Source: a virus
Taxonomy: Duplodnaviria > Caudoviricetes
Virus record (IMG/VR): IMGVR_UViG_3300044656_000027
Span: 32,001 to 96,000 of that record
Direction: 5' to 3' (one strand)
Length of the DNA: 64,000 nucleotides
Position 1 is the first letter of the stretch, and each line of letters begins with the position of its first letter. The notes below the pieces were generated by a model. The model did not search any database. It was given only the letters and a program-made list of their open reading frames with translations, and had not been told where the DNA came from. The position numbers and the translations under genes were made by a program. Shown one piece after another: positions 37,435 through 52,115 of the stretch.

Positions 37435-37840
37435 GGATAAAACTCAAATCTGGTGGGGAATAGGTGGGAGGCTTTAGAACCTTCCCAAGCTCATTTCTAT
37501 GAACCTCTCCATCATCCCATACCTTTGACATATTTGAGTTATGTACTGCTTCAAATACCTTATCCAAGGGGATCTGAAACTCATCAGCAGTTCCATACAC
37601 TACGTATAGTAGGTCAGCAAGCTCCTTAGCCAGATGCTCCTTGGACTTCTTGTAGTTGTCCCATTCATCTAACGTATGCCAATTACTATCAACAGTCTTA
37701 AGAGCCTCTATCGTCTCCTCAAATTCCTCAGTAATAAGAGCAATTCGACGCTTGGTTCTATCCGCATGTATATCCTGATATTGCTCAGGAGAGAAAGTCA
37801 CATGGAATATACGGACATCATTTTGTGGAGTATATGTCAT
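37418..37840 (-). CDS. MazG-like nucleoside triphosphate pyrophosphohydrolase
   Basis: LITEE..E...KELADLLYVVYG...VH.SNMSK...GKVLKPP.Y.PPDL. Confidence 0.88.
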   Translation of the reverse strand: MTYTPQNDVRIFHVTFSPEQYQDIHADRTKRRIALITEEFEETIEALKTVDSNWHTLDEWDNYKKSKEHLAKELADLLYVVYGTADEFQIPLDKVFEAVHNSNMSKVWDDGEVHRNELGKVLKPPTYSPPDLSFIHERTV

Positions 37841-38976
37841 CAGTATTCCACACCATCCACAGAGAATCGGCCATCCTGAACAGTAATGAGACGCGGGTAA
37901 ACACGGTCACCATGAACCTCAAGAATTCCGAATGCCTGCTGCCAGTTAGCCGCAACACCCTTCTTCTTCAGATAGTCAGCCTTGGTAAGATCCATGAAGT
38001 GTCCAACCTCAAGACCATAACGGGTGTCACGGATCTTGCCGTTGTAACCAGTGGACTCAGAAGTGACTCCAGCACGGTGGGTGTGACCACAAACAACGTT
38101 GGCACCGAACTTGTTCTTAGCCAGGTTGAATGCGGTACGTCCAGCGATACTGTTCAAAGATCCCTCATCACCATGCGCCATAAGCCAGGGCTTATCAATT
38201 CCAGGTGTAAGTTCAACGACCTCATCACGGATGAACTCCACATCGTACTCATCGAATCCAGCGAGATATTCGATGTTAAGTTCGTCGTCCATGAGGGATG
38301 CAAGTCCAGCGGCACAACCTTCGATGTAAAGTTCCAGCCTGTCATCGTGGTTGGAGCGGACGATTCGGAATCGTCCATCGAAGACGTTTCGAATGTCTCG
38401 AAGAATTGACTTAGCAGTGCGGAAGCCTCCTGCAAGGTCTCCTGCGTACTCAGTCTTCTTTCCGCGTACCCATCGAGAAATCTCTGTGGAATCCGTAAAG
38501 TCACCAACCTGTCCCAACTCTGTAGGCTCGAAGTCCCCAAGGAACTTGACGAACTTGTCAACCAACTCCTGATCGTGCAGTGGAGCCTGAACGTCTGGCA
38601 TGATGACAATCGTGTTCGCCTTACGCGTAGAAAGCAGGATCGGAGATACTGCCTTCTCTGGAGCAGGGTTAGTGGTATTCACCGTAATTGTCTTGCTGGT
38701 GTTTCCCAGTAGCCCATAAGGATCAGTTATCGGGAATGGCTCAAACGGATTATACTTCTTCAGTTCATTCAGACGACGCAGCGTCTCTGCATGCGCAGGC
38801 TCTACCGTCTTCTTGCGCCACGTACGAATCAGCTTCTCACTGACCTTGTAGCCCCACTCCGCAAGCATCATGGATGCTCGTGCTCGGCTGACATCCTCAT
38901 CGTCCAGAAGAGTCCAGATGTCATCGTGAATGTTCGCCAGAGCGTCAAGCTCCTTGAAACTTGTGATGTGCTTCAA
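37840..38976 (-). CDS. calcineurin-like metallophosphoesterase
   Basis: PDVQ, GDFTD, SNHD, HGD, GHTH motifs. Confidence 0.88.
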   Translation of the reverse strand: MKHITSFKELDALANIHDDIWTLLDDEDVSRARASMMLAEWGYKVSEKLIRTWRKKTVEPAHAETLRRLNELKKYNPFEPFPITDPYGLLGNTSKTITVNTTNPAPEKAVSPILLSTRKANTIVIMPDVQAPLHDQELVDKFVKFLGDFEPTELGQVGDFTDSTEISRWVRGKKTEYAGDLAGGFRTAKSILRDIRNVFDGRFRIVRSNHDDRLELYIEGCAAGLASLMDDELNIEYLAGFDEYDVEFIRDEVVELTPGIDKPWLMAHGDEGSLNSIAGRTAFNLAKNKFGANVVCGHTHRAGVTSESTGYNGKIRDTRYGLEVGHFMDLTKADYLKKKGVAANWQQAFGILEVHGDRVYPRLITVQDGRFSVDGVEY

Positions 38977-39602: not shown

Positions 39603-40739
39603 TTACTCTGCGGTAGGCTTGATGATATCCCAAATTGTACTTGAAATATCCTTACCATCTAGCAAAAGAAACATAATTCCAGGGTGCGTAAGGTTTGCGT
39701 CCTTGACTGCAAGAGCAAAATCCTTACGAGTAAAATCTCTAGGAAGAGAGCTTACGATGCCGTCATAAAACAAAGTCTTCAAGATGAAGACCTTACGGTC
39801 ATAGTGATCCTGCAATTCCTTGTAAGTCTCCTGCAACCACGCGTGCCACTCATCCGGAACGATCTCAAGCAAGTCCGCAAGAGTCTTACCATCCTTCATG
39901 TTCTCCCAGACGCGCCGCTTGGTCAAACCTGTGACAACACGGTGCAGAGCAACGTAATCATCCTGCTTCACCTTGATACGGTAGTCAAGGTTCGGAAAGT
40001 AGACCACGTAACCCTCTGCATTAGCCCGTGGAGGGCACTCCAGCGCCTCTCTAAGCGTCTTGTAGGGAAAGACCTTGGTCTGCTCCCCATACCACTCGTA
40101 TTGGCTCGGAGAGAGCCGTACAAGCCCTGTGGAAAGGTTACGCGCACCTAGCCACGTAAGTCCCTTACGGTCACCGTAGTTGACGACGATTCGGTTCTCA
40201 GGGTAGATGATCTCTACCATGTATGTCCAGTTAGGATCAAGCAGACCTGTGTGCTGCTCCGCAAGCTTGCGCCCCATTACAGCCTGATCCGAATCGTAGG
40301 AACCCCGAGTGATAAGGGTCCACTTAGGCTCCCAAGGAGCGTAGTAAACAGCCGGAACAGAACGAACTGGGGTAGGGTCATGCCATCGGTCCTCAGGGAA
40401 CTGCTGGTTGTAACAGAAGAGGATACCAAGAGACCCGTCCATCTTGTCAGAGACGTGGACTGGCTCATCCATAAGCTGCTTGTCATCCTCAGACAGGTTC
40501 ATGAACTTGTCGAAAGGACGAGCCAGGACATTCCAGTTCTCATCAATTACAAGACCACGGCACTGCTTAGTTACCTCGTTCCACAGGTTATCGAACTGCG
40601 CCTTCTCGGTATACCCCAAAATTCTAAAAGTCTTCTTGTGCAAGTAGCTTACTTCAAGAGTAAACTCATTAACCCGAATATACTTCTCTCGAACCATTTG
40701 ACGGTAAAGATCCATATCCATCAAGTCCCAGAGCTTCAC
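39603..40739 (-). CDS. RNA ligase (T4 Rnl1-like)
   Basis: CRGLV, ARPFDKF.N, motif I KMDGSLG, TRGS, EII.P.NRIVV.Y, EGYVV, RIKVK; GTG start after GAGGAGG. Confidence 0.9.
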   Translation of the reverse strand: MKLWDLMDMDLYRQMVREKYIRVNEFTLEVSYLHKKTFRILGYTEKAQFDNLWNEVTKQCRGLVIDENWNVLARPFDKFMNLSEDDKQLMDEPVHVSDKMDGSLGILFCYNQQFPEDRWHDPTPVRSVPAVYYAPWEPKWTLITRGSYDSDQAVMGRKLAEQHTGLLDPNWTYMVEIIYPENRIVVNYGDRKGLTWLGARNLSTGLVRLSPSQYEWYGEQTKVFPYKTLREALECPPRANAEGYVVYFPNLDYRIKVKQDDYVALHRVVTGLTKRRVWENMKDGKTLADLLEIVPDEWHAWLQETYKELQDHYDRKVFILKTLFYDGIVSSLPRDFTRKDFALAVKDANLTHPGIMFLLLDGKDISSTIWDIIKPTAE

Positions 40740-41151
40740 GATTTGCCTCCTCCTCATAGGTTTCTAGAATCTCACGCGCCCAAGCTACCAGGTCTTCAAC
40801 CCTTTGTCCAAGAGGTTGCTTAGTTACCCAAAGTTCTAGATTTTCAAGACGATTGTCGTCTCGTACGCCATTCTTATGGTGCACATTCTCCCCTTTTCGA
40901 AGGGGTCTGTCAAGGTGTCTAGACATCACTAGCACATGCTCTAAAATAGTTCCATTTGCTTGTGCATTTGGATGTTCAGGAGCGTATACACGTCTATAAC
41001 CTTGCTCAGTAGTTGTGCCAGCTCCGTTAGCCGCACGTCGTCTCACGGGGCGTAGTTCTTGACCTTTAGACTGTTGCCAATAGTGTGCCCCACACAGTCC
41101 GCGTCCTGTCACTTTGCCTCCACAATCAGGGAAGCTGCATGTCTTCTTCAT
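40669..41151 (-). CDS. HNH homing endonuclease
   Basis: N-terminal C..C...C..H, EHVLVM...VHHKNGVRDDNRLENLELW. Confidence 0.9.
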   Translation of the reverse strand: MKKTCSFPDCGGKVTGRGLCGAHYWQQSKGQELRPVRRRAANGAGTTTEQGYRRVYAPEHPNAQANGTILEHVLVMSRHLDRPLRKGENVHHKNGVRDDNRLENLELWVTKQPLGQRVEDLVAWAREILETYEEEANREALGLDGYGSLPSNGSREVYSG

Positions 41152-41219: not shown

Positions 41220-41226
41220 AGTGGAG

Positions 41227-41308
41227 TGGGTAGAGAGGGACTTGAACCCCCAGATCCGAAGAACGGGTTTTACAGACCCGCGCGCTACCAATTACGCTTT
41301 ACCTACCC
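41227..41308 (-). tRNA. tRNA-Tyr(GTA)
   Basis: Cloverleaf; CGGGT-CTGTAAA-ACCCG; long variable arm. Confidence 0.9.
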
Positions 41309-41309
41309 A

Positions 41310-41384
41310 TGGGGTGACCAACGGGGATCGAACCCGCGATACTTGAGTCACAGTCAAGCGTGTTACCGCTACACCATGGCCACC
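41310..41384 (-). tRNA. tRNA-His(GTG), G-1 and CCA encoded
   Basis: CTTGA-CTGTGAC-TCAAG. Confidence 0.92.
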
Positions 41385-41393
41385 ATGTGAAAG

Positions 41394-41464
41394 AGGGAAG
41401 CTAGGGACTCGAACCCTAAATGGCGGGGACACAATCCGCTATGTTACCGTTACATTAGCGACCC
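41394..41464 (-). tRNA. degenerate tRNA-like gene, GTG anticodon
   Basis: D and T arms intact; two acceptor mismatches; loop TTGTGTC. Confidence 0.55.
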
Positions 41465-41470
41465 ATAGAC

Positions 41471-41500
41471 ACTATATCGGATTGGAACAGTAAGTGTCAA
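41471..41500 (-). promoter_or_regulatory. internal tRNA-array promoter
   Basis: TTGACA-N18-TATAGT just upstream of 41464. Confidence 0.6.
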
Positions 41501-41501
41501 G

Positions 41502-41573
41502 TACGAACACCAAGAATTGAACTTGAAATTAGACTTTATCAGAGTCTCGTGATAACCGTTTCACCATGCTCGC
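41502..41573 (-). tRNA. tRNA-Ile(GAT)
   Basis: AGACT-CTGATAA-AGTCT. Confidence 0.85.
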
Positions 41574-41578
41574 ATTAT

Positions 41579-41887
41579 TTAAATATCCTCTAGCATGCGC
41601 TTAATGAAGCTCTTTGGCTTAGCTCCAACTGCATACTTAATGATACTGCCTTCGCGGAACAAAAGCAAGGTTGGTATAGATGAGATGTCGTACTTCTTAG
41701 TGAGGTTAGGATTCTCATCTGCGTTTACCTTGATGACCTTGAGCCAGTCGTTCTCTTCTGAGATAGACTCTAGCACAGGTGCCATCATCTTGCAAGGACC
41801 ACACCACTCAGCCCAGAAGTCAACTAATACGTACTTGTTATCAGCAATTACTGAATCGAATGTTATTTCTGATACTGCCTGCATCAT
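41579..41887 (-). CDS. trxA: thioredoxin
   Basis: LVDFWAEWCGPCK...SIPTL. Confidence 0.95.
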   Translation of the reverse strand: MMQAVSEITFDSVIADNKYVLVDFWAEWCGPCKMMAPVLESISEENDWLKVIKVNADENPNLTKKYDISSIPTLLLFREGSIIKYAVGAKPKSFIKRMLEDI

Positions 41888-41899
41888 CTCTCCTTTACG

Positions 41900-41972
41900 T
41901 AGGGCATAGAGGAATTGAACCTCTTATCGTTGGGATATAAGCCCACTGCATCGACCGTTATGCTAATGCCCC
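41900..41972 (-). tRNA. tRNA-Ile(TAT)
   Basis: TGGG-CTTATAT-CCCA; acceptor GGGGCAT/ATGCCCT. Confidence 0.8.
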
Positions 41973-42084
41973 AAAGCCCTGTCGCACATTCTCCGACTCT
42001 CTATGTAACCTCATTCGGACTACTGTGAGACTTCTCTACTAACCCTCGTTACACAGGGTGTTTGATGGCTCGGACTAGCCAAAG

Positions 42085-42168
42085 CGGAGGATGAGGGATT
42101 CGAACCCCCACGGCTTTTACACCGTATTGTTTTCAAGACAACTCCACGCCACCGATGTTAGATCCTCC
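42085..42168 (-). tRNA. tRNA-Ser(TGA)
   Basis: GTTGT-CTTGAAA-ACAAT; long variable arm; weak D arm. Confidence 0.8.
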
Positions 42169-42214
42169 ATGTGATAAGCCTTTTGGTTAGTAGGGCGCTT
42201 ATCTAATCCCTAAG

Positions 42215-42302
42215 CGGAGATAGAGGGATTCGAACCCTCGGGGCGATTTGAATACCCGCTGCCTTTCCAAGACAGTGCACTAGACCTCTATGCGATATCT
42301 CC
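42215..42302 (-). tRNA. tRNA-Ser(GGA)
   Basis: CTGTC-TTGGAAA-GGCAG; long variable arm. Confidence 0.88.
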
Positions 42303-42311
42303 ATTATTTAA

Positions 42312-42416
42312 TTAGCGTGGATCAGGATTCTTTGTTCCACACTTTGGGCAATACAGATTTCTCTTATCAGAAGGCATATAGCACTTTGGACAATAGAAGA
42401 TACTTCCACCAGACAT
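42312..42416 (-). CDS. 34-aa zinc-ribbon microprotein
   Basis: MSGGSIFYCPKCYMPSDKRNLYCPKCGTKNPDPR; TAATG-coupled. Confidence 0.75.
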   Translation of the reverse strand: MSGGSIFYCPKCYMPSDKRNLYCPKCGTKNPDPR

Positions 42417-42499
42417 TATCGTGCCACCTTGCAGTTATAGCAGTGACCGTACTTGTCCATGTTGATGTGACCACAATACTTACACTTCCAAAAGCTCAC
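42416..42499 (-). CDS. 27-aa RanBP2-type zinc-finger microprotein
   Basis: MSFWKCKYCGHINMDKYGHCYNCKVAR; GTGA-coupled. Confidence 0.75.
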   Translation of the reverse strand: MSFWKCKYCGHINMDKYGHCYNCKVAR

Positions 42500-42588
42500 T
42501 TTGGCTTACCCTTCATCCATCGACAGTGCCAGCACTTTGCTTTTGCTTCATTGTTGTACGAGCCGCAGTTATTGCATTTCCAACCCAT
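42496..42588 (-). CDS. 30-aa RanBP2-type zinc-finger microprotein
   Basis: MGWKCNNCGSYNNEAKAKCWHCRWMKGKPK; GGAGG RBS. Confidence 0.8.
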   Translation of the reverse strand: MGWKCNNCGSYNNEAKAKCWHCRWMKGKPK

Positions 42589-42601
42589 AATATCCTCCAA
42601 G

Positions 42602-42681
42602 CGGAAGGAGGAGGATTCGAACCCCCAGCTATTCACTGAACGGTTTAGCAAACCGTCTGCCAGACCCCTGACTCACCTTCC
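42602..42681 (-). tRNA. tRNA-Ser(GCT)
   Basis: ACGGT-TTGCTAA-ACCGT. Confidence 0.82.
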
Positions 42682-42685
42682 AAAG

Positions 42686-42762
42686 AGCGCAGCAGGAGAA
42701 TCGAACTCCAAACCAATCGCTTTGCAGGCGATCCCCAGACCATCCGAGTTAGGACACTGCGC
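42686..42762 (-). tRNA. tRNA-Cys(GCA), atypical enlarged D region
   Basis: ATCGC-CTGCAAA-GCGAT; U73. Confidence 0.75.
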
Positions 42763-42767
42763 ATAAG

Positions 42768-42847
42768 TGGAGCTGCGGGGATTCGAACCCCGGTGCTGAT
42801 AACTTCCGACATGCGGTTTTAATCACCAGACGAAACCAACCAGCCCC
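42768..42847 (-). ncRNA. mini-tmRNA: tRNA-like domain only
   Basis: GGGGCTG-GTTGGTTTCGTC 5' end, G3:U70, A73, canonical T arm, short helix 2 capped by GCATGTCG; no tag reading frame. Confidence 0.75.
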
Positions 42848-42944
42848 ATTGTGTCTGGCCTCATACGGGCTATTACCAGACTTGAAGTGCCCAGAGCCCG
42901 CACTTAGGGCTACTGTCCCGTAAAGGAATCTCGTCAGATTCCAG

Positions 42945-43015
42945 TACCCAGTGAGGGAATCGAACCCCCGCATGTGGTGTGTAAAACCACTGGTCTCCCA
43001 TTAACCTAACCGGGC
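42945..43015 (-). tRNA. tRNA-Val(TAC)
   Basis: GTGGT-TTTACAC-ACCAC. Confidence 0.88.
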
Positions 43016-43047
43016 AGGTAGAAGAACCGAAGTTCTTCTAGTATAGC

Positions 43048-43254
43048 TTAACTGCGATAGGCGATAAAGTCAACCGGCACGCTTTCCTCAACTCCATCGT
43101 GCCATCTGACATCTACGCAAGTGGTTCCCATCCAGTCGTACTCAGGGCAAAGAGTAACGCCTGAGTGATTACGACGAGAACCATTCCTACCAACAACATT
43201 GATCCCTCGGAAGTTGGAAGGTGCTTCCTTCTTCTTACGACCAAACAGACCCAC
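43048..43254 (-). CDS. hypothetical protein
   Basis: 68 aa, GGGGG RBS, GTG start. Confidence 0.65.
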   Translation of the reverse strand: MGLFGRKKKEAPSNFRGINVVGRNGSRRNHSGVTLCPEYDWMGTTCVDVRWHDGVEESVPVDFIAYRS

Positions 43255-43286
43255 TGTGTTCCCCTTCGTTAGTTGGTGTGTCTATC

Positions 43287-43565
43287 TTAGACCAGGTAGG
43301 ACCAAGTGTCAACACTACCGTCAGTGCGCTTGAGGCTAATGGATCGATTGACCTCACCCTCCTCAAACGTCCAAGCCATCAGACGCAGGTGGTACTCAGT
43401 GTCAAGGTGCTGGGGAAGACCCATCTCCTCAAGCTCACACAGAGCCTCCATCGTCTTAGCCACGTTGTAAGCGGCAACGGCAAAGCTCTCAACAGGAACC
43501 GTAGAGCTCTTCTTAAAGCCGTCCTTGGACTCGACATCAATAGTGAGTGTAGCCATTTTGTGCAT
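43287..43565 (-). CDS. hypothetical protein
   Basis: 92-aa ORF between tRNAs. Confidence 0.65.
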   Translation of the reverse strand: MHKMATLTIDVESKDGFKKSSTVPVESFAVAAYNVAKTMEALCELEEMGLPQHLDTEYHLRLMAWTFEEGEVNRSISLKRTDGSVDTWSYLV

Positions 43566-43587
43566 CCCTTCGATTGATACTATGACG

Positions 43588-43660
43588 TACCCTAGACAGG
43601 ATTCGAACCTGCATTGAACAGCTTAGAAGGCTGGTGAGTTATCCGTTACTCTACTAGGGC
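43588..43660 (-). tRNA. tRNA-Arg(TCT)
   Basis: CAGC-CTTCTAA-GCTG. Confidence 0.88.
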
Positions 43661-43687
43661 AAGAGGGACCGAAGTCCCGGATACTGC

Positions 43688-44242
43688 TTAGTCCCACCAC
43701 ATAGCCTTAGCATATAGTGGATTCTCTTCTATGTCAACGTCCCACCAGTTATCAACCTCAGCCCAACGCCAGATCGTTCCCCAGTCGTCGTATCCATTAG
43801 GTACTTCGATAGCAGAATTTGGATCAGTGTCAGCATGGTGTCCCATGTAGTTAATAGCCTGCTTGAGTTGCTGCTTGACGTTGTGTCTGCGAGCCTGACT
43901 TACAGCCTTCTTAGCGCCGTGTCGTGGCCAACCGTAGCCTATATCAGTTGCGTAGTATTTGCAACCATCACGCCAACGATTGTGCGTATGTGTCATTGGC
44001 TCATCAATATTACAAGGAACTTCCTCAGTCCAACGATCCCAGACGTGAACGGATTCTTGACGCTCTGGAATCTTGTAGTAACGCATTTCATCCCAATCCC
44101 AAACATACTTGGAAGGGATGGTAGTTACATCCGTACGAACATACTCTCTTCGATGACGCAGATGATTATGGACAGCCTCACGGCGTTCCTTAGAGTCATT
44201 AGAGCGAACCCAGTAAGGACGATCCTTGCGAGTGCGGGACAT
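43688..44242 (-). CDS. hypothetical basic protein (MSRT-x-K N-terminus)
   Basis: 184 aa, AAGGAG RBS. Confidence 0.75.
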   Translation of the reverse strand: MSRTRKDRPYWVRSNDSKERREAVHNHLRHRREYVRTDVTTIPSKYVWDWDEMRYYKIPERQESVHVWDRWTEEVPCNIDEPMTHTHNRWRDGCKYYATDIGYGWPRHGAKKAVSQARRHNVKQQLKQAINYMGHHADTDPNSAIEVPNGYDDWGTIWRWAEVDNWWDVDIEENPLYAKAMWWD

Positions 44243-44353
44243 ATTTACTCCCTTGTTAGTGCTAAAGCAAATGCCAGTATTTAGAGGAACTGGCTGGCCT
44301 CCCGTTCATTGAGACTTTCTAGGGTGTGTTTCAGAACGGCTTAGATATCCCTG

Positions 44354-44429
44354 CACGGATGACAGGAGTTGAACCTGCATGTGTCCTTTAACCTTTCTAC
44401 GCGTTCGTAGCGCGAGGGTATACATCCGC
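44354..44429 (-). tRNA. atypical rewired tRNA-Arg(ACG)-like RNA
   Basis: Acceptor GCGGATG/CATCCGT and T arm intact, no D arm; CGCG-CTACGAA-CGCG hairpin followed by long linker with TAAAGG. Confidence 0.65.
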
Positions 44430-44840
44430 ATTAAGTTGCCACCAATTAAACTGTCTGGCAGTTCTGTATCTGTGACATTTGACACAACGAATATCGCACT
44501 TAGCGATCTCAGTTTGTAAAACTTCTAAACTAAGCTTTCGCTTAATACCATCCGCTATATTAAAACTTTTGGTTTCTGGATCTCGATGATCAAAGTCCAG
44601 AAGGACTATATCAGACTCGCCACAATCTATACAGGGATTCTGATCATAGTAATTTACTAAGTAAGTTCTAACCTTTACTAGGTACTTCTCATCATTACGC
44701 CGTGCCTTAGCCAAGTAGCTTTGCTTATTAGCTTGATAATGCTCACGAGTATACTTACGATGACAAGGCTTACACATTGCACTCTTAGTTGCGAACTCTT
44801 CTTTGGCCAACTCTTGGTTGCACCTACTACATGTTTTCAT
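44397..44840 (-). CDS. HNH homing endonuclease
   Basis: CSRC...CKPC; CIDCGE.D...LDFDH.D....EIAKCDIRC..CHR. Confidence 0.88.
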   Translation of the reverse strand: MKTCSRCNQELAKEEFATKSAMCKPCHRKYTREHYQANKQSYLAKARRNDEKYLVKVRTYLVNYYDQNPCIDCGESDIVLLDFDHRDPETKSFNIADGIKRKLSLEVLQTEIAKCDIRCVKCHRYRTARQFNWWQLNADVYPRATNA

Positions 44841-44860
44841 GCTACTAATTATAGCATAGG

Positions 44861-44898
44861 TTCGTAGGCAAGTGCTCTATCCGTTGAGCTATAGCACC
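44861..44898 (-). pseudogene. 5' half of conventional tRNA-Arg(ACG), truncated after the anticodon loop
   Basis: GGTGCTATAGCTCAACGGATAGAGCACTTGCCTACGAA then unrelated HNH promoter sequence. Confidence 0.75.
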
Positions 44899-44906
44899 AT
44901 ACTTTG

Positions 44907-45410
44907 TTACTTCTTTAAACTTAGCAGATAATCTCTTATAGCACCAGGACTTGTCAAGTATGCTGGCTTGTTAGACAGCTTGGAACCCGCCAAATCGTAA
45001 TCCTCAGCACAGAGTTGAGAGCAGATCAAGTGCTTGCTGTTAAGAACTCTAGCAGAGATCCAAGGAAGAGGCAAGTGCAGTCTCTTCGTGAAAATCGCAA
45101 AGTAATCCAGGAAACTGTATGGTGTGCCAATCTGATTGGTTGCTAGAGTAACGATAGTCACTCTTTGCTGAGCTGTCAAATCAATCAGACCAGAGGACCA
45201 CAGGATCTCTCGTCCATCGTACTTCGACAAGTTAGTTCTGATAGCACCACCAGGTTGAGCTTCTACGATCTCACCATTACCAATGTAAATGAAGGCATGC
45301 TCATAGTTGGAGAAGCCATCTCCGTTAAGCCACTGGCCTAAGCGAATCAGCTTGCCCACAGTACCGTTGATACTTACTAAGCCTACATCACCTGGTAATA
45401 GTTCCGCCAC
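44907..45410 (-). CDS. permuted papain-like NlpC/P60 (YiiX/YaeF-like) amidase
   Basis: PGD...HAFIY.GNG.IVEA...IGTPY...ICSQL. Confidence 0.82.
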   Translation of the reverse strand: MAELLPGDVGLVSINGTVGKLIRLGQWLNGDGFSNYEHAFIYIGNGEIVEAQPGGAIRTNLSKYDGREILWSSGLIDLTAQQRVTIVTLATNQIGTPYSFLDYFAIFTKRLHLPLPWISARVLNSKHLICSQLCAEDYDLAGSKLSNKPAYLTSPGAIRDYLLSLKK

Positions 45411-45540
45411 TACACTTCTCCTTGTGCTTAAAGAATGCTTTCTCTGCTTCACCCTCAGAGTCAAATGGACCCTCAGAATGCCTACCAGTAGCGCACTCGT
45501 GAGTAAACTTCCACTTACCTGGTCTATGTTGAATGACCAT
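45388..45540 (-). CDS. 50-aa hypothetical protein
   Basis: MVIQHRPGKW..., GGAGG RBS right after tRNA-Lys. Confidence 0.6.
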   Translation of the reverse strand: MVIQHRPGKWKFTHECATGRHSEGPFDSEGEAEKAFFKHKEKCSGGTITR

Positions 45541-45555
45541 CTTTCCTCCTTTACG

Positions 45556-45628
45556 TACCCCCAGTGGGACTCGAACCCACACCACGCGGATTAAAAGTCC
45601 GCTGCATTAACCGTTGTGCTATAGGGGC
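45556..45628 (-). tRNA. tRNA-Lys(TTT)
   Basis: GCGGA-CTTTTAA-TCCGC. Confidence 0.92.
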
Positions 45629-45652
45629 ATAGGGCCGAAGCCCTCTTTCGAA

Positions 45653-46087
45653 TTACTTACCAGTGCCAGCCTGAGCAGTAATGGTAGGAATACCACCCTG
45701 ACCAGAAGGAACGTAAACAACAGTGTTGTTCTTGCCAGACTCAGCGATACGCTCAAGAGCCTGAGTCATCTCGTACTGAACGTAGATGGGAGTCAGAGTC
45801 TTAGCGATCTCATCCTGAGCCTCACGGACACCAATGGCGTCCTGGAGACGAATCTCAGCCTGCTGCTTAGCAATCTGAACTCGCTGCGCCTGATTCTGGA
45901 TCTCAATGTTAGAGACCTCAACCTGGTTATTCGCAGCAATAATATTCGCCTGAGCCTTGTTCTTAGCATCCTGGATATTCTGGTATCGACCAAAAGCCTG
46001 GAAACCCGCAATGGCACCCATGAAGATACCGATTACAAGAGCCAGACCAAGAATCGCAGCAACACCCTTGCCCAGAATCTCAGACAT
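45653..46087 (-). CDS. membrane-anchored coiled-coil protein (SPFH/band-7 C-terminal-like)
   Basis: N-terminal TM, AEIR..AIG..AQ..I..TLTP.Y.QY...VVYVP...GIP. Confidence 0.7.
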   Translation of the reverse strand: MSEILGKGVAAILGLALVIGIFMGAIAGFQAFGRYQNIQDAKNKAQANIIAANNQVEVSNIEIQNQAQRVQIAKQQAEIRLQDAIGVREAQDEIAKTLTPIYVQYEMTQALERIAESGKNNTVVYVPSGQGGIPTITAQAGTGK

Positions 46088-46136
46088 TTAGTTATTCTCC
46101 TTCTTAATACTCCGAGTACCGATCTAATGATCGGAG

Positions 46137-46210
46137 AGCCCACTATGGGATTCGAACCCATGACCTCTTCATTACCAATGAAGTGCTCTGCCAGGCTGAG
46201 CTAAGAGGGC
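46137..46210 (-). tRNA. tRNA-Thr(GGT)
   Basis: CTTCA-TTGGTAA-TGAAG. Confidence 0.92.
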
Positions 46211-46317
46211 AAAACAAGATTGAGATCGGGACGCCGAACTTGTCACTTCCCAGCGATACTGCCTGCATACAGTTCAATCTCTGGAACTCATCTAAGCGCT
46301 TAGAGTGTTGTTCGTTG

Positions 46318-46389
46318 TACTCCGCCAGGGACTTGAACCCTGATCCATGGATTAAGAGTCCATTGCATCACCATTAATGCTTGCGAAGC
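46318..46389 (-). tRNA. tRNA-Lys(CTT)
   Basis: ATGGA-CTCTTAA-TCCAT. Confidence 0.88.
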
Positions 46390-46418
46390 ATAAGGCTCCT
46401 ATTGGAGCCCGTTTTACG

Positions 46419-46724
46419 TTACTTACCAAAGAGCCAACGTGCAAGACCCTTTGTCTCTCGATAAGGCTCGTTCTCCTGGTATCCTCCACCGAAAGTGCTC
46501 TCATACGCAAGACGCTCAGCAGAAACCTGTGCGTGACCCTCAGGAGTTAAAGGGGTACCACGAGAGAACTCCTTGCGCATACCGTCCTTGGAGGTATACT
46601 CGTTCACCTTGAAGTTAGGTGCTGGAGTATCGGAACCATCGTCCTTAAGATACTTATCGTAATAAGCATCGTAATGAACTCCGAGCTTCTTCTGCTCCTT
46701 AGGCGTAAGCCACTTCTCAGGCAT
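46419..46724 (-). CDS. hypothetical protein
   Basis: 101 aa, GGAGG RBS. Confidence 0.7.
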   Translation of the reverse strand: MPEKWLTPKEQKKLGVHYDAYYDKYLKDDGSDTPAPNFKVNEYTSKDGMRKEFSRGTPLTPEGHAQVSAERLAYESTFGGGYQENEPYRETKGLARWLFGK

Positions 46725-46758
46725 AAGGTTTTGCCTCCCTTATATTGGTTATAAAACG

Positions 46759-46830
46759 TGGAGCCACGGGGAATCGAACCCCGAACTTCGGATTGCAAAA
46801 CCGATGTGTTTCCGTTAGCACCATGGCCCC
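46759..46830 (-). tRNA. tRNA-Ala(TGC)
   Basis: G3:U70; loop TTTGCAA. Confidence 0.9.
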
Positions 46831-46892
46831 AGTGTTCTCATCTAGTGTACCACACTCTAGATGAAATAAAAAGCCCAACTTAATGGGCTAAG

Positions 46893-46964
46893 CTCTCACA
46901 GCTGGATTCGAACCAACAACCTTGGAGTTAACAGCTCCCTGCTCTGCCATTGAGCTATGCGAGA
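46893..46964 (-). tRNA. tRNA-Asn(GTT)
   Basis: GGAG-CTGTTAA-CTCC. Confidence 0.9.
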
Positions 46965-47035
46965 ATAAGCCTCAACCACTAGGGAAGAGGTGGTGTATGT
47001 TGTTTATCTTAGCAAACTCTCGTTAGAGAGTCAAG

Positions 47036-47106
47036 CAGGCCACCCAGGAGTCGAACCCGGCCGAATTGGGTTGGAACCAATCATGCTTCCGATACATCAG
47101 TGGCCT
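47036..47106 (-). tRNA. tRNA-Trp(CCA)
   Basis: ATTGG-TTCCAAC-CCAAT. Confidence 0.88.
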
Positions 47107-47152
47107 ATATGGTTCCGTTGTTTCCCACGCACAACGGTTTCCTAAAAGCTCG

Positions 47153-47225
47153 TAGCGCCCGTCGGATTCGAACCGACACTGATTAGTTCCTAAGACTAAT
47201 GCCTCTGCCATTGGGCTAGAGCGCC
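47153..47225 (-). tRNA. tRNA-Leu(TAG), short variable arm
   Basis: TTAGT-CTTAGGA-ACTAA. Confidence 0.88.
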
Positions 47226-47265
47226 ATACGCACTCAGTGGCCAAAGCGGGTGAGTGCTTGTGTTA

Positions 47266-47709
47266 CTAGCTTATCAGATTATGAACGTAATGGGAAGCTT
47301 CATAGTCTGACGCTGATGCATTGTGGATGCCTCCGTGTCCTCTGTGGTGCTTAGCACACAGGAACATGAAGTTCTCTTCTGATTCTACCCAAGCGCCCAC
47401 TTCATTAGGATCAGAGATCCCAGGGAAGTCCTGCTCTAGGTACTTCAAGTCTACACCCTGCTGCATGCTGAATTCAACATGGCTGTGGTGTAGCTCCAGA
47501 CCTCCAGCACACTCGGAAGTATCTCCGCCACGACGTAATGCGAATTCGCATACAGCGTCCTTGACGTGAGTCTTACGATAGTGCTCAAAGTCACGATAAT
47601 GTGGATCATCCTTTCTAGCTGGATGAGCCGGAAATGCTACTGTGTAATGCTTAGTTTCAGCTTGTGTATGCGCTTCTACTACCTTACCCATACTGGCCCT
47701 ATCTGTCAA
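47266..47709 (-). CDS. hypothetical protein with HNH-like Cys/His pattern
   Basis: C...C...LELHH...N...LCAKHH.....IH. Confidence 0.65.
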   Translation of the reverse strand: MTDRASMGKVVEAHTQAETKHYTVAFPAHPARKDDPHYRDFEHYRKTHVKDAVCEFALRRGGDTSECAGGLELHHSHVEFSMQQGVDLKYLEQDFPGISDPNEVGAWVESEENFMFLCAKHHRGHGGIHNASASDYEASHYVHNLIS

Positions 47710-48287
47710 TAGCCCTTAGGTGGGCGTGTTGGATCAAATTGCTGAACCTTGGCAGCTAGGTCATGTCCATCTCTGGATACTCCATAGAACTGTACCACAT
47801 AGTTCATAGCCGCACAAGTGTTGGCTACGGCATCGTAAATGTCATATGACGTTCCAAGTTGGTGATACTTTGCAAAGGTTGGTGGAATACATTGTAGAAC
47901 ACCACGAGAACAATTTGCAGGATGACCATCAGCAACGATAGGTCCAGTAGCGTTTAGATCATAAGTGTTTACTGCGTTAAAGTCATAACTGCTTTCACGG
48001 TTGGCCGCAGTAACAAGTCCAGTCTTCCAATAACTCTGTGCTGTCGGATCAGTAATAGACATGATCTCGAATACCTTTGGCAGCACAGTAGAGGTAAAGG
48101 ATACAGAGTTGTCTACTAGGCCGTAACTAACAGCACCTACACTAATAGGAGAAGGTGTAAATCCAGTGTCTACTGATATTTCGATACTGTTCTTAGTCAG
48201 CTTAGTCTTAGTTGTTATACCGTTAACAGTAATAATTGCAGTGGCCCCAAGAGGCAATGTGCCGGATGTAAATAAGTGCTCTATCAT
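47706..48287 (-). CDS. lytic transglycosylase (SLT) domain protein
   Basis: RESS...AVN..D.N...SRGVLQ.IPPTF..YH...IYD.VAN..AA.NY...YG. Confidence 0.85.
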   Translation of the reverse strand: MIEHLFTSGTLPLGATAIITVNGITTKTKLTKNSIEISVDTGFTPSPISVGAVSYGLVDNSVSFTSTVLPKVFEIMSITDPTAQSYWKTGLVTAANRESSYDFNAVNTYDLNATGPIVADGHPANCSRGVLQCIPPTFAKYHQLGTSYDIYDAVANTCAAMNYVVQFYGVSRDGHDLAAKVQQFDPTRPPKGY

Positions 48288-48288
48288 A

Positions 48289-48633
48289 TTATTCCAATTC
48301 AGTAATCGGTATCCAGCCCTTGCCCTCACGGCCCTCTACTAGAAGGTTACGAGGCTCCATGTCTCTGGCTACTCTGTCTTCAACCTTCTCAAGCCCATGA
48401 AGGGTCCTGTGTGTCCATATGCGGAACTTTGAGGACTCTGCCATACGTCTGAATGCCAAACGCTTGTTGATCAGCTGAGAGCGCTCCTCACGGCTTTCAC
48501 CTACAGCACCGGAAGGCTTATGAATTACTCTTACGCCCGTTTCGCGCTTATTCTGATTCTGACCACCCTTTCCTCCTGAACGGAAGGTTTGGACCTCACA
48601 ATCATGAATAGTCACGCTAAATGCTTTTTCCAT
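48289..48633 (-). CDS. stand-alone GGQ peptide chain release factor domain (RF-1/ArfB/PrfH-like)
   Basis: [26 protein letters not shown]......ERSQ..NK..A. Confidence 0.9.
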
Positions 48634-48634
48634 G

Positions 48635-48708
48635 TAGTCCTACTCGGATTCGAACCGAGAACCTTCACATTTTGAGTGTGACGCCTCTGCCAATTGGGCT
48701 ACAGGACC
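48635..48708 (-). tRNA. tRNA-Leu(CAA), short variable arm
   Basis: TCACA-CTCAAAA-TGTGA. Confidence 0.88.
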
Positions 48709-48761
48709 ATTTCTGCCCCCGATGGGCCTTGTGCACTGGAATTTCCAGGATCGGGGTAAAG

Positions 48762-48835
48762 TAGTCCTTGTCGGACTCGAACCGACACCTGAACAGGGTT
48801 TAAGCCTGTTGCCTCTTCCATTGGGCTAAAGGACC
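48762..48835 (-). tRNA. tRNA-Leu(TAA), short variable arm
   Basis: ACAGG-CTTAAAC-CCTGT. Confidence 0.88.
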
Positions 48836-48843
48836 ATAATGTG

Positions 48844-48914
48844 AGCCCTGCGAAGGAATTGAACCCTCATTTGCGCATTACGAAAGCGCTGTTCTGCCGT
48901 TTAACTAGCAGGGC
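48844..48914 (-). tRNA. tRNA-Thr(CGT)
   Basis: GCGC(T)-TTCGTAA-(T)GCGC. Confidence 0.85.
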
Positions 48915-48915
48915 A

Positions 48916-49081
48916 ATGTGGATAGTTGGATTCGATGATTACCAACAAGGCATTTCCTACGTCATACAGTAAATACCTACCATCCCTTTGGGTGCTACCC
49001 AAGACCGCTAAGTCAGGATGTGCGTTCGACCCATAGGCGAGTCTTTTCCGCCATATCCGGTCAGCATGATCAGTGCCGACT
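48916..49081 (-). ncRNA. candidate structured ncRNA between two tRNA-Thr genes
   Basis: Six or more short helices visible; no convincing ORF seen. Confidence 0.35.
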
Positions 49082-49084
49082 TTG

Positions 49085-49157
49085 AGCCCCCAGTCGGATT
49101 CGAACCGACGACCTACGCTTTACAAGAGCGTTGCTCTGGCCTCTGAGCTATAAGGGC
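49085..49157 (-). tRNA. tRNA-Thr(TGT)
   Basis: ACGCT-CTTGTAA-AGCGT. Confidence 0.92.
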
Positions 49158-49199
49158 ATAGGGAGTCTCCGGAAGGAGGAAACAGAGACTCCCAGTATA

Positions 49200-49493
49200 T
49201 TAGGCAGTTCCCGTAGCGGTAACTACCCAGTCTGTGTTTGCGTTCAGAGTAAAGTCAATTGGCTTGCTGAACGCGTTACCAGTTAGGTAAACAGTCCAAA
49301 GACCGTCAGTAGCACCAGCACCAGGAGCGTTAACTGCCTGCTGAATTGACGCAACTGTTGGATATCCCAGTCCAGAACCAGACGCAGGAGCGGTTTGCAC
49401 GTAGCAGTGACCATCTGCGGCTGCTGCAAGAACAACCTGAGTACCCACAGTCAAAGCATTAACTCTGATTGGAGCATTGTAAGTAATTGCCAT
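49200..49493 (-). CDS. hypothetical virion-like small protein
   Basis: MAITYNAP..., Ala/Gly/Thr-rich, composition like structural genes. Confidence 0.65.
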   Translation of the reverse strand: MAITYNAPIRVNALTVGTQVVLAAAADGHCYVQTAPASGSGLGYPTVASIQQAVNAPGAGATDGLWTVYLTGNAFSKPIDFTLNANTDWVVTATGTA

Positions 49494-49562
49494 AAGTGGC
49501 ACCTTTCATGAAAGGGATTGAGCGCTATAGCATTCTCAATAATATCATGAAAGATTATTGTG

Positions 49563-49636
49563 CACCGAAGACGAGATTTGAACCCGCAAATACCCAGCTT
49601 GAAAGGCTGGTGACTCTACCATTCGTCCACTCCGGC
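49563..49636 (-). tRNA. tRNA-Glu(TTC)
   Basis: CCAGC-CTTTCAA-GCTGG. Confidence 0.88.
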
Positions 49637-49644
49637 AAGCGCAG

Positions 49645-49783
49645 AGATGACACCAACCCCTGCGGTTATTACATAGTATTTAATAGGCAGCCTATCTCTT
49701 TTCGGCTAGCGGGAGGACAGGTAGCCCTTTAGCTCAGGCTTCCAACTCTTCCTTTATCCCTAGAGACCTATTATGGTGTCTTA
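49645..49783 (-). ncRNA. candidate structured ncRNA between two tRNA-Glu genes
   Basis: Closing helix GACACCA/TGGTGTC, inner TAATAGG/CCTATTA and hairpins. Confidence 0.35.
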
Positions 49784-49785
49784 CG

Positions 49786-49859
49786 TACTCCGTACGGGAT
49801 TCGAACCCGTATTCTCCCGGTTGAGAGCCGGGTGAGATGTCCTATTACTCTAACGGAGC
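49786..49859 (-). tRNA. tRNA-Glu(CTC)
   Basis: CCCGG-CTCTCAA-CCGGG. Confidence 0.88.
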
Positions 49860-49905
49860 ATACATCTCCTTGGTTGGCGAAGGAGATGGTTCCTCAATGT
49901 ACGCG

Positions 49906-49978
49906 CGCCCCTGACGGGATTCGAACCCGCCCTTGCACCTTGACAGGGTACCGTGCTACTCCCATACACTACAGGGGC
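49906..49978 (-). tRNA. tRNA-Asp(GTC)
   Basis: GTACC-CTGTCAA-GGTGC. Confidence 0.9.
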
Positions 49979-49984
49979 TTTTAT

Positions 49985-50443
49985 TTACACCATCTTAAAA
50001 GCTGCCGTACGCATGGCTTCTGCGAACTCCGTGTCAGGAAGTTTCTTGGCGTCTTGTGGTGCTTCTACATTACCAGTGAACACATCGTATGTCAACTCAC
50101 GTGTGTACTTGTTAGCGATCTTCTCCATCTGAACATACATGTCATTCAGCATGTTCATCATGTCGTTCTGCGCTCTCTGTGATAGAGACCTTATACCATC
50201 CTGGCGTCCTCTGTCAACAGCAGCCTTGGTGTCCGCAGCAAACTCAGGTGTGTGAATTAGCGCGTCATTTTCGTTGTAGAGCTCTCGAATCTTCTTCTCA
50301 GTCTCAGATAGCTTCTGACGTAGCGTAAGCGCCTCAGACTGCCATCTAGCCATGCCTAAGCGTGCTTCCTCAAGCTCCCACTTGGTGTCCTTGAGTTCAT
50401 CTGACACAAGGGACAACGCGTTTCTAATTGCGGACTTCTTCAT
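49985..50443 (-). CDS. coiled-coil hypothetical protein
   Basis: 152 aa, AGGAG RBS. Confidence 0.7.
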   Translation of the reverse strand: MKKSAIRNALSLVSDELKDTKWELEEARLGMARWQSEALTLRQKLSETEKKIRELYNENDALIHTPEFAADTKAAVDRGRQDGIRSLSQRAQNDMMNMLNDMYVQMEKIANKYTRELTYDVFTGNVEAPQDAKKLPDTEFAEAMRTAAFKMV

Positions 50444-50527
50444 TATATTCTCCTAGTTATTATCACAATGTAGTGACAGTATATCAGAGAATAGAAAAAG
50501 CCCCTGTAATACAACAGGGGCCTTAAG

Positions 50528-50818
50528 TTACTCAGCAGGCCAAGTAATGTTTGGTCGTTGAAACTTAACTCTGCCATTTCTTACAATGGCACGTTCAATA
50601 TCTGGGGATTCCTCACCATAGCGAATCATAATCAGATACTTATCTGGATACTGGTACGCGATCTGCTGTAAATCCTCGTCCCAGTTATACCACTTAGCGC
50701 TATACATGCAACCATCGTCATCCCAAGACGGACCATAATTGCCTGTATTAGCAGCAAGGACATCCTTAATATCAGGAATGTCCGTGTCTACAGTTTCAAA
50801 ATTTGAGTAATATCCCAT
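50528..50818 (-). CDS. hypothetical protein
   Basis: MGYYSNF...AKWY.W..D...YP......GEE; GGAGG RBS; hairpin terminator 50492-50524 follows. Confidence 0.75.
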   Translation of the reverse strand: MGYYSNFETVDTDIPDIKDVLAANTGNYGPSWDDDGCMYSAKWYNWDEDLQQIAYQYPDKYLIMIRYGEESPDIERAIVRNGRVKFQRPNITWPAE

Positions 50819-50941
50819 TCTTACCTCCTACGTAAGTGGTCTTCCCGTAGTCAGTGTGCACCTGACTTTTCCCGTACGTTCCTGCTGCTAGCTAGCGTTC
50901 ACGTCTGTAGAGTGTTGTATCCCAGTTAAGGGACGGGGGCG

Positions 50942-51012
50942 CTGGGGCGCAGAGATTCGAACTCCGATAGGCTGATCCAAAGTCAGCAGTCCTGCCATTA
51001 GACGAAACCCCA
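50942..51012 (-). tRNA. tRNA-Gln(TTG)
   Basis: GCTGA-CTTTGGA-TCAGC. Confidence 0.88.
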
Positions 51013-51028
51013 TTAAATTTGCTGCAAG

Positions 51029-51099
51029 CTCCCCGACATGGATTCGAACCACGATTTCTTCGTCCAGAGCGAAGCGTGCTGCCCTTACACCATCAGGGA
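51029..51099 (-). tRNA. tRNA-Gln(CTG)
   Basis: CTTCG-CTCTGGA-CGAAG. Confidence 0.9.
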
Positions 51100-51137
51100 A
51101 TAAGTGCCCTGCTATTGCTAGCTGTTTATGGGCTAAG

Positions 51138-51210
51138 TACCGTATAGGAGACTCGAACTCCTTCGTTCACTTTGGAAGAGTGACATGCTGCCATTAAACA
51201 TCAATACGGC
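51138..51210 (-). tRNA. tRNA-Gly(TCC)
   Basis: TCACT-CTTCCAA-AGTGA. Confidence 0.88.
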
Positions 51211-51287
51211 ATTGCTTGTAGTCAGGCGGTTCTTTCAGGTTCTACAAGCTCCTCTGTCGCTACATATCGCAGCAACCGCCAGGAAAC

Positions 51288-51683
51288 TTAGTAATCGTCG
51301 TGAGATTCGTCTTCATCCCATTCAGGAACACACCAACCGCAATCACACCAGTCTTCGTAGTATTCCTCTTCCTCTTCGTCCTCATAACCAATCAAAGTTA
51401 CTACAGGACCCGCAGAGGTTACATCTACGTCAACAATACGGTCAGAACCATCCTGAACCTCAGCAGATACTCCCCAACCCGTTTCAGAACCATATTCAGC
51501 CTTCATAAGCTCCTCAATGAGGATACGAGTCAGATATGGAGTATCGTACTTGCGATTAAGTGCTCTTCCGACGCTTAGACCTGTCATAACCATTGCTGGC
51601 AGGTCCGACCCATTCCAGTGAGTGTAAATGTACACACCTGGACGATTTCCTTCATGAATGTATACGTTAGCTCTATCTCCCAT
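51288..51683 (-). CDS. hypothetical protein with acidic tail
   Basis: MGDRANV...VYIYTHW.G motif; leaderless start. Confidence 0.75.
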   Translation of the reverse strand: MGDRANVYIHEGNRPGVYIYTHWNGSDLPAMVMTGLSVGRALNRKYDTPYLTRILIEELMKAEYGSETGWGVSAEVQDGSDRIVDVDVTSAGPVVTLIGYEDEEEEEYYEDWCDCGWCVPEWDEDESHDDY

Positions 51684-51690
51684 GTGAGAG

Positions 51691-51719
51691 ACTGTACTAC
51701 ATTCACTTGAAGATGTCAA
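51691..51719 (-). promoter_or_regulatory. leaderless promoter
   Basis: TTGACA-N17-TACAGT, 7 nt to ATG 51683. Confidence 0.65.
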
Positions 51720-51720
51720 G

Positions 51721-51804
51721 TGGTAGCGGAGGCGGGATTTGAACCTCTTTGTGCGATCTCTAGCTTATGAGGCTAGCGAGATGACCTAGCTTCTCTACTC
51801 CGCG
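51721..51804 (-). tRNA. initiator-like tRNA-Met(CAT) with T-stem insertion, CCA encoded
   Basis: C1:U72 mismatch, CTAGC-CTCATAA-GCTAG, extra ACAAAG in T stem. Confidence 0.7.
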
Positions 51805-51806
51805 AG

Positions 51807-51878
51807 TACCGGGAGTGGGAATCGAACCCACGACGACAAGGTTATGAATCTTGCGTTCTACCATTGAACTATCCCGGC
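51807..51878 (-). tRNA. tRNA-Met(CAT)
   Basis: CAAG(A)-TTCATAA-(C)CTTG. Confidence 0.85.
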
Positions 51879-52110: not shown

Positions 52111-52115
52111 ATAAG

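Follow-up and report, generated by a model that had tools for sequence, protein, structure and literature searches.

A tag-less tmRNA reduced to its tRNA-like domain in the tRNA array of a 111-kb phage, and its relatives in other phages

The phage analysed here carries, on the minus strand at 42768-42847, an 80-nt RNA gene that corresponds to the tRNA-like domain (TLD) of tmRNA and has neither a tag frame nor pseudoknots; that this is a real, selected TLD-only tmRNA gene we regard as nearly certain. The window, a stretch of 64,000 nucleotides, covers bases 32001-96000 of IMG/VR record IMGVR_UViG_3300044656_000027, a genome of 111,289 bp with direct terminal repeats, rated 100% complete and with a GC content of 48.8%. 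Its DNA matches are single tRNAs of Streptomyces phages only; the phage represents a new lineage that probably infects Streptomyces or a related actinomycete. For the window alone the finding is confirmatory, of a kind already known from mycobacteriophage DS6A and little studied. The added value lies at the level of the family, in its breadth, the covariation of its fold, the conserved alanine identity and the lack of any phage SmpB or full-length tmRNA. As to function, we lean, by a small measure, towards a working tag-less mini-tmRNA of the DS6A type that would compete with the host's tmRNA and so lower ssrA tagging.

Read 5' to 3', the RNA runs GGGGCUG, GUUGGUUUCGU, CUGGUGAU, UAAAA, CCG-CAUGU-CGG, AA, GUUAUCAG, CAC, CGGGG-UUCGAAU-CCCCG, CAGCUCC and A, from G1 at 42847 to the discriminator A73 at 42768, just as the minus strand had been read in the preliminary description, the descriptive items of which all hold. 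The 5' strand of the acceptor stem (GGGGCUG, 42841-42847, minus strand as are all parts of the element) forms seven of seven pairs with CAGCUCC (42769-42775), among them G3:U70. It is followed by a stemless, tmRNA-type D loop (GUUGGUUUCGU, 42830-42840), seen both in the read and in the Rfam alignment, while the linker CAC and a T arm with five of five stem pairs (CGGGG-UUCGAAU-CCCCG) occupy 42776-42795. Only 34 nt (42796-42829) separate the D loop from that linker, and in the per-sequence fold they make a single helix 2 (CUGGUGAU with GUUAUCAG; 8 pairs, 3 of them G-U) around UAAAA, a cap and AA. The cap, CCG-CAUGU-CGG at 42806-42816, is a 3-bp hairpin that closes helix 2. The GCAUG motif that had been reported to follow helix 2 is present, but it is not loose sequence past that helix: it is the loop of the cap, the stem of which covaries. 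C74 is encoded at 42767, and C75 and A76 are absent from the DNA.

The Rfam tmRNA model RF00023, a check that had been proposed for the element, matches 42765-42847 end to end (model positions 1-374) at 58.2 bits (E 3e-20), where the gathering cut-off is 47 bits; scanned alone, the element scores 49.7 bits. Model positions 1-37 and about 328-374 are present, that is, the acceptor stem, the D loop, helix 2a with the base of 2b, and the T arm, and the 290 internal positions that hold PK1, the mRNA-like domain and PK2-4 are replaced by 2 nt. This agrees with the view of a tmRNA cut down to its tRNA-like domain. In this alignment there is no resume codon and no tag reading frame with its stop, and neither the alignment nor the fold contains pseudoknots PK1-PK4. 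The parts that mark a tmRNA-type TLD are there: an acceptor stem of 7 bp that includes G3:U70 and is followed by A73, a D loop without a stem, GGNUUCGAC, here in the variant UCGUC, and the T arm. Of the marks of a tRNA-Ala the element has the AlaRS identity elements G3:U70 and A73, and it has no D stem and no alanine-anticodon stem-loop; the anticodon loop had already been described as missing. ARAGORN calls neither a tRNA nor a tmRNA at 42768-42847, and in Rfam clan competition the tmRNA match is kept over the tRNA match. By minimum free energy alone the window copy would fold at -30.7 kcal/mol (z -2.2) with its D loop paired to helix 2, unlike the fold supported by covariation (-26.8 kcal/mol), which is the one adopted here.

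The gene sits among 32 tRNAs that ARAGORN places in 41226-52187, all on the minus strand. Its upstream neighbour is tRNA-Val(UAC) (42944-43015), as it also is in Streptomyces phage pSt2308 and in the contig L010, and tRNA-Cys(GCA) (42685-42762) lies 5 nt downstream. A separate, ordinary tRNA-Ala(UGC), noticed at the outset, is found at 46758-46830 of the same array by both ARAGORN and Rfam, so the mini form is no substitute for a decoding tRNA-Ala. The ends of the mini-tmRNA match those of the 32 tRNAs: a leader ending in at, the discriminator, one C and a T-rich trailer, with no encoded CA. Nearly all of the 32 tRNA genes likewise have the discriminator and C74 and then a T-rich trailer without C75-A76, and a PF01743 search of the phage found no CCA-adding enzyme. 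The 96 nt between tRNA-Val and the mini-tmRNA (42848-42943, minus strand) lie outside the RNA gene and start with a clean 7-bp hairpin, GGAAUCU-GACG-AGAUUCC. A conserved element in this spacer, which is 85-96 nt long in the three syntenic phages (window, pSt2308, L010), was considered and rejected, its sequence being unconserved among them. Neither a promoter-like site in 42848-42943 nor a minus-strand terminator before tRNA-Cys was found, which is weak evidence. Taken together, the tRNA-type ends, the tRNA-Cys only 5 nt away and the lack of a promoter-like site or terminator suggest that the array yields this RNA in the way it yields its tRNAs. Most likely, to judge from this gene layout, it would be transcribed together with the neighbouring tRNAs and processed as they are, with host RNase P cutting at G1, trimming at the 3' end and the CCA completed by the host's CCA-adding enzyme.

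Several other genes lie in or near the array. HNH endonucleases are encoded at 40669-41151, 44397-44840 and 47266-47709, and a further one on the plus strand at 53830-54249. Directly downstream of the tRNAs is an RNA ligase of the T4 Rnl1 type (39603-40757, minus strand), whose closest matches, at 38-40% identity, are the ligases of Streptomyces phage BRock and of BE-cluster phages, and after it comes a 378-aa protein (37840-38976, minus strand) with a weak metallophosphoesterase match; the two look like a tRNA-repair module. Phage pSt2308 has the same layout, tRNA-Tyr and then RNA ligase. In the 28-tRNA array of another contig that carries a mini-tmRNA (L024), ARAGORN reports at 1203-1277 a tRNA with the anticodon UCA ('tRNA-SeC'), which may be a UGA-reading tRNA of the suppressor type.

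The absence of any tyrosine or serine integrase from the complete 111-kb genome bears on the possibility that the element is what remains of a tmRNA gene as an attachment site (attP), maintained at the DNA level so that the phage can integrate into the host's ssrA. Many actinophage tyrosine integrases do target tRNA or tmRNA genes (PMC10865867), and in a subgroup of carriers (IMG/VR contigs L018, L020, L026 and L028) a tyrosine integrase gene is found on the same strand as the mini-tmRNA, some 450 nt upstream. DS6A, however, integrates at tRNA-Lys-CTT and not at a tmRNA gene (PMC10865867), so that its element is not an attP. An attP would moreover need only the 3' part of its target, yet the 5' acceptor strand, the D loop and helix 2 are all present and covary as RNA pairs. 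We consider this explanation very improbable, and for the window's phage it is effectively refuted. In the same four contigs, a 393-aa protein homologous to gp36 of DS6A is encoded directly downstream on the opposite strand.

The window copy belongs to a large and cleanly defined family, with homologues in Streptomyces phages pSt2308 and Shaeky, in mycobacteriophage DS6A, in Stenotrophomonas phage Jojan60 and in at least 119 viral contigs of IMG/VR, so that hosts range from actinobacteria to Stenotrophomonas. The copies of pSt2308 and Shaeky were found by BLAST; both are 81-82 nt long and score above the Rfam tmRNA cut-off. That of pSt2308 is syntenic with the window's, in a tRNA array directly after tRNA-Val, and that of Shaeky, a 45.6-kb temperate phage, lies between tRNA-Phe and tRNA-Leu. 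The Jojan60 member (ON045087.1 37724-37804; L053:2501-2580), likewise found by BLAST, scores 86.8 bits, and it takes the family beyond the actinophages. Scans of IMG/VR with a stricter pattern gave 27 contigs and with a looser one at least 119; the first pattern fixed G7 and GC at 65-66, so acceptor stems of the Jojan60 type were missed by it. In 185,579 species genomes the stricter pattern matches only two short contigs, both from actinobacterial MAGs, and each of these MAGs has a normal full-length tmRNA elsewhere. Among the matches listed there are 88 distinct sequences, from contigs of 27-73% GC, with a length mode of 79 nt and 67 of the 88 at 78-80 nt, which gives the conserved length in relatives that had been named as a check. 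Longer variants of 86-95 nt (IMG/VR L027, L029, L079, L089, L113, L141 and L147) keep the TLD and have a larger insert in place of the CCN-CAYG-NGG cap, and in shorter ones of 66-69 nt (L071, L098, L100 and L101) helix 2 is closed directly.

Our family covariance model R1, built from 24 sequences with DS6A among them, gives members 56-96 bits against less than 29 for the best tRNA; the window copy scores 88.1 bits and that of DS6A 73.6. ARAGORN, in contrast, misses the family, calling none of the 26 loci tested, and GenBank records either leave the gene without annotation or place a spurious CDS on top of it. The copies in DS6A, pSt2308 and Shaeky are all unannotated there, as is that of Jojan60, which lies partly under the CDS of a 46-aa 'hypothetical protein'. 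The tag-less tmRNA of the DS6A type is thus much commoner in phages than has been catalogued. Members occur inside large tRNA arrays and also as the sole tRNA-like gene nearby, as in DS6A, from which it follows that the mini-tmRNA does not depend on a set of tRNAs. No full-length tmRNA was found in the window's genome, in DS6A or in any of 21 larger carrier genomes, each of which has exactly one tmRNA-type match, of 70-98 nt. SmpB is likewise absent from the window's genome and from all 21 of the other larger carriers, 10 of which are at least 90% complete.

That the intact helices reflect selection and not decay, as first proposed, is borne out by the family. In an alignment-free check of each sequence the acceptor stem forms 7 of 7 pairs, the T stem 5 of 5, and helix 2 pairs though its sequence differs almost each time. 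Model-based alignments, whose counts lean towards structure because they are fitted to the model, agree with this check: 97.4% of the cells are paired over 26 sequences, with double-sided changes in 13 of 22 pairs, and 99.0% over 53 distinct sequences, with such changes in 15 of the 22 pairs (319 cells). Controls with slid partners gave 41-52% pairing, and over the 53 sequences none of 500 shuffles reached the observed value on four of five measures, while 10 of 500 did so on 'further standard pair types'. The acceptor stem is paired in 100% of the cells, with positions 5-7 covarying; double-sided changes are found in six of the seven helix-2 pairs and in the inner pair of the cap; four of the five T-stem pairs covary; and the cap stem itself occurs as CCG/CGG, CCC/GGG and CCA/UGG. 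When the three syntenic phages are aligned, conservation sets in precisely at G1.

These results leave a practically negligible probability for decay of a tmRNA into a pseudogene, for a deletion private to this phage or for an error of assembly. Nothing speaks for such an origin except the 290 missing positions of RF00023, and it is refuted by the recurrence of the 78-80 nt architecture in the 88 distinct sequences listed, as well as by the 99% pairing, the abundant compensatory changes, the sharp footprint of conservation and the lack of a full-length copy in any carrier. The syntenic pSt2308 and L010 carry the mini form after tRNA-Val and have no full-length tmRNA at that place, so the worry that a private deletion or a misassembly lay behind the window copy falls away. 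If the mini form had arisen when a single deletion joined the two GCAUG half-sites of helix 2, comparison with full-length actinobacterial tmRNAs and that of phage Sushi23 might show the join; no clean junction was found, as might be expected from a mini helix 2 that is shorter than helices 2a and 2b together.

The alanine identity pair requires separate treatment, in that the first two patterns forced GGGG...CUCCA and thereby fixed G3:U70. In a third scan any base was allowed at positions 3 and 70, and among the matches listed 86 of 90 distinct sequences have G3:U70, most exceptions resembling one-base register slips or single mutated copies; the pair is also present in the four members found without any pattern, those of DS6A, pSt2308, Shaeky and Jojan60. 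C74 is encoded in 86 of 88 distinct sequences, and the full CCA in only 15, again among the matches listed. The window copy is of a minority subtype with UCGUC in the D loop and CAC before the T arm (4 of the 90 sequences, against 58 of 90 with UCGAC and GAC, among the matches listed). This region, the D loop and the base of helix 2, is contacted by SmpB in structures of the TLD with SmpB, so the affinity of the window copy for SmpB may differ.

Identity as a tmRNA-type TLD, homology with the DS6A element, purifying selection on the fold and on the alanine pair, a phage without SmpB or full-length tmRNA, and a tRNA-like gene syntax are thus directly supported. From them we infer, for the window's RNA, expression, processing, charging, binding by SmpB and an effect on the host. 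It is known that AlaRS charges the TLD of tmRNA, that EF-Tu binds it like a tRNA and that SmpB takes the place of the anticodon arm (review PMC8012679). Host AlaRS would accordingly recognize G1-C72, G2-C71, G3:U70, G4-C69 and A73 of the mini-tmRNA and charge it with alanine, and host SmpB would bind by way of the tmRNA-type D loop, the T loop and helix 2a. With no resume codon, tag frame or pseudoknots the molecule could not complete trans-translation; it would instead compete with the host's tmRNA for SmpB, EF-Tu and stalled ribosomes, so that less ssrA tagging would take place during infection. The preliminary description had offered two roles for an alanyl-charged SmpB ligand, titration of SmpB or acceptance of stalled peptides with no degradation tag added, and the sequence prerequisites hold for both, namely the AlaRS identity elements, the tmRNA-type D loop, helix 2a and the lack of a phage SmpB. 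The titration idea is already in print for the DS6A homologue (PMC4131195, PMC11915505).

Hudson, Lau and Williams (2014) list 'Mycobacterium phage DS6A (TLD only)' and suggest that it titrates SmpB (PMC4131195). According to the accounts given there and in PMC11915505 of work by Mao et al. (2009), a DS6A-like TLD molecule strongly inhibits the tmRNA of E. coli, 'perhaps acting by titrating SmpB', and it is reported to do so whether it can be charged or not (PMC4131195); a 2025 paper on the tmRNA database also states that the DS6A form, expressed in E. coli, inhibits the endogenous tmRNA (PMC11915505). If inhibition is indifferent to charging (PMC4131195), a pure sponge leaves the strong conservation of the alanine identity pair unexplained. 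The conserved G3:U70 suggests that charging of the mini-tmRNA matters, and it keeps tag-free rescue in serious competition with the decoy model: together with SmpB and EF-Tu of the host, the alanylated mini-tmRNA would enter the stalled ribosome and accept the nascent chain, and the complex would be resolved without a degradation tag, either by a codon-independent hydrolase (a phage GGQ protein, host ArfB, or Pth after drop-off) or by repeated rounds of alanine addition. The retention of G3:U70 and of C74 at the frequencies given above points to a selected, chargeable 3' end that an SmpB sponge does not need, and tmRNAs without a CDS persist alongside SmpB in organelles, where they are thought to help with incomplete mRNAs (PMC11915505). 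On the other side, no release mechanism is known for a peptidyl-TLD, and the published test of the DS6A-like form, as later papers summarize it, reports inhibition of tmRNA and not rescue. We judge tag-free rescue possible but on balance doubtful.

A further point in favour of rescue is that the same array encodes, between two tRNA-Leu genes, a stand-alone GGQ (RF-1 domain) protein of 114 aa (48289-48633, minus strand). It matches PF00472 at 58.5 bits and phrog_3122 with E 2.6e-42 and has the GGQ motif; its match to the ArfB model is poor (22.5 bits against a cut-off of 100), and ArfB is less close to it than is domain 3 of RF1, RF2 and PrfH. The protein may hydrolyse peptidyl-tRNA independently of the codon, and it is a possible, though not an obligate, companion of the mini-tmRNA. 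It occurs, however, in only 3 of the 26 carrier genomes checked (2 of the 21 larger carriers), too rarely to be part of a general mechanism. That the mini-tmRNA is the core of a rescue run by the phage itself, with the chain released untagged (perhaps by the phage GGQ hydrolase) or with a short alanine tail, seems to us rather unlikely; if true, it would be a natural trans-translation without a message.

A separate template for the tag was also considered. A six-frame scan of the whole genome gave a single tag-like frame, where about 0.2 are expected by chance: PSGRLFALAA*, 10 codons at 54470-54502 on the minus strand, antisense within a plus-strand ORF. Its end, FALAA*, resembles the tag of the tmRNA of Streptomyces BE phages (ANSKFAFALAA*); there is no Rfam tmRNA signal around it in 52200-57000, and the frame is judged to be due to chance, so that a separate template is not supported. 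The search for an obligate protein partner ended in the same way, for in an all-against-all comparison no neighbour is universal or recurrent among the carriers. SmpB was found in 0 of 21 carriers, GGQ in 2 of 21, and the rare ligases Rnl1 in 1 of 23 and RtcB in 2 of 23.

This lack of a recurrent neighbour or companion also weighs against the possibility that the RNA is a decoy for some other host factor that reads tmRNA-like or tRNA-like shapes, such as RNase R or a defence nuclease with an SmpB-like domain, and so does its failure to explain why the AlaRS identity set as a whole is conserved, together with C74. What speaks for it is entirely indirect: the SmpB-like OB folds of the CoCoNuT defence systems are predicted to bind tmRNA-like RNA (PMC10542128), tmRNA fragments of about 90 nt associate with an anti-CRISPR protein and RNase R (PMC11662646), and this phage invests against RNA damage, with its Rnl1-type ligase beside the array. 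On balance we think this explanation improbable. Competition with the host's tmRNA keeps our slight preference, although what a phage would gain from blocking ribosome rescue is not obvious.

Tag-less phage tmRNAs are represented in print by one example, DS6A, and one heterologous test. Against that background, two of the results given above bear on mechanism: carriers have no SmpB or full-length tmRNA of their own, and the alanine identity pair is conserved when it is left free. The second suggests that the published 'SmpB sponge' reading may be incomplete. In one way or the other, as far as its sequence and conservation tell, the mini-tmRNA probably disturbs the tagging of unfinished proteins by the host or gets round it, and with cultured carriers in pSt2308, Shaeky, DS6A and Jojan60 the question is directly testable.

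The closest known system is DS6A itself, whose element (tmRNA Website tmID 11587) we located at JN698994.1 28478-28560. Like the window copy it is 80-83 nt long, with the same order of parts, a GGGG... acceptor stem that contains G3:U70 and is followed by A73, a stemless D loop and one helix 2, an A-rich stretch and a CCG-CAYG-CGG cap (AAAACCGCAYG(N)CGG is common to both), the linker CAC, the T arm, and a 3' end at which C74 but not the whole CCA is encoded. The two are carried by phages whose genomes encode neither a full-length tmRNA nor SmpB, and neither has a tag frame. They differ in setting: in DS6A, a temperate mycobacteriophage of 60 kb, the gene is a solitary one beside the DNA polymerase III beta gene, whereas the window's lies among 32 tRNAs of a 111-kb phage that lacks an integrase and is related to Streptomyces phages. 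The DS6A copy also has a longer D loop, CAAUGGUGGUCGAC, and other sequences in helix 2 and in acceptor pairs 5-7, and with 43.2 bits it falls below the Rfam cut-off that the window copy, with 58.2, exceeds.

The full-length tmRNAs of actinophages (Sushi23 and Pepperwood of the BE cluster, Bxz1 of cluster C) are also phage-borne, lie among tRNA genes in a neighbourhood of the same type and share the same TLD elements, but they are about 280 nt long, encode a tag (e.g. ANSKFAFALAA*) and match the Rfam model end to end at 89 bits, in contrast to the window copy with neither tag frame nor pseudoknots; those of the BE cluster, with their encoded tag, represent the opposite strategy to the mini-tmRNA. 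Among organelles, PMC11915505 mentions tmRNAs without a CDS in jakobid mitochondria (Jacob et al. 2004) and forms of about 65 bp in the plastids of Mallomonadaceae. These too are natural reductions to the tRNA-like domain with no tag frame, retained under selection with SmpB encoded elsewhere. They are, however, the sole tmRNA of their compartment, whereas the phage form comes in addition to an intact tmRNA of the host; the lineages are independent, and the comparison is one of descriptions. Finally, synthetic TLD constructs were made for co-crystals with SmpB (Gutmann et al. 2003 and Bessho et al. 2007, as cited in PMC8012679 and PMC10542128). They resemble the phage RNA in having an acceptor stem, D loop, T arm and a helix 2a closed by a short loop. 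Both sets of constructs reportedly bind SmpB. They are laboratory truncations, whereas a conserved CCN-CAYG-NGG cap and an A-rich internal loop are peculiar to the natural family.
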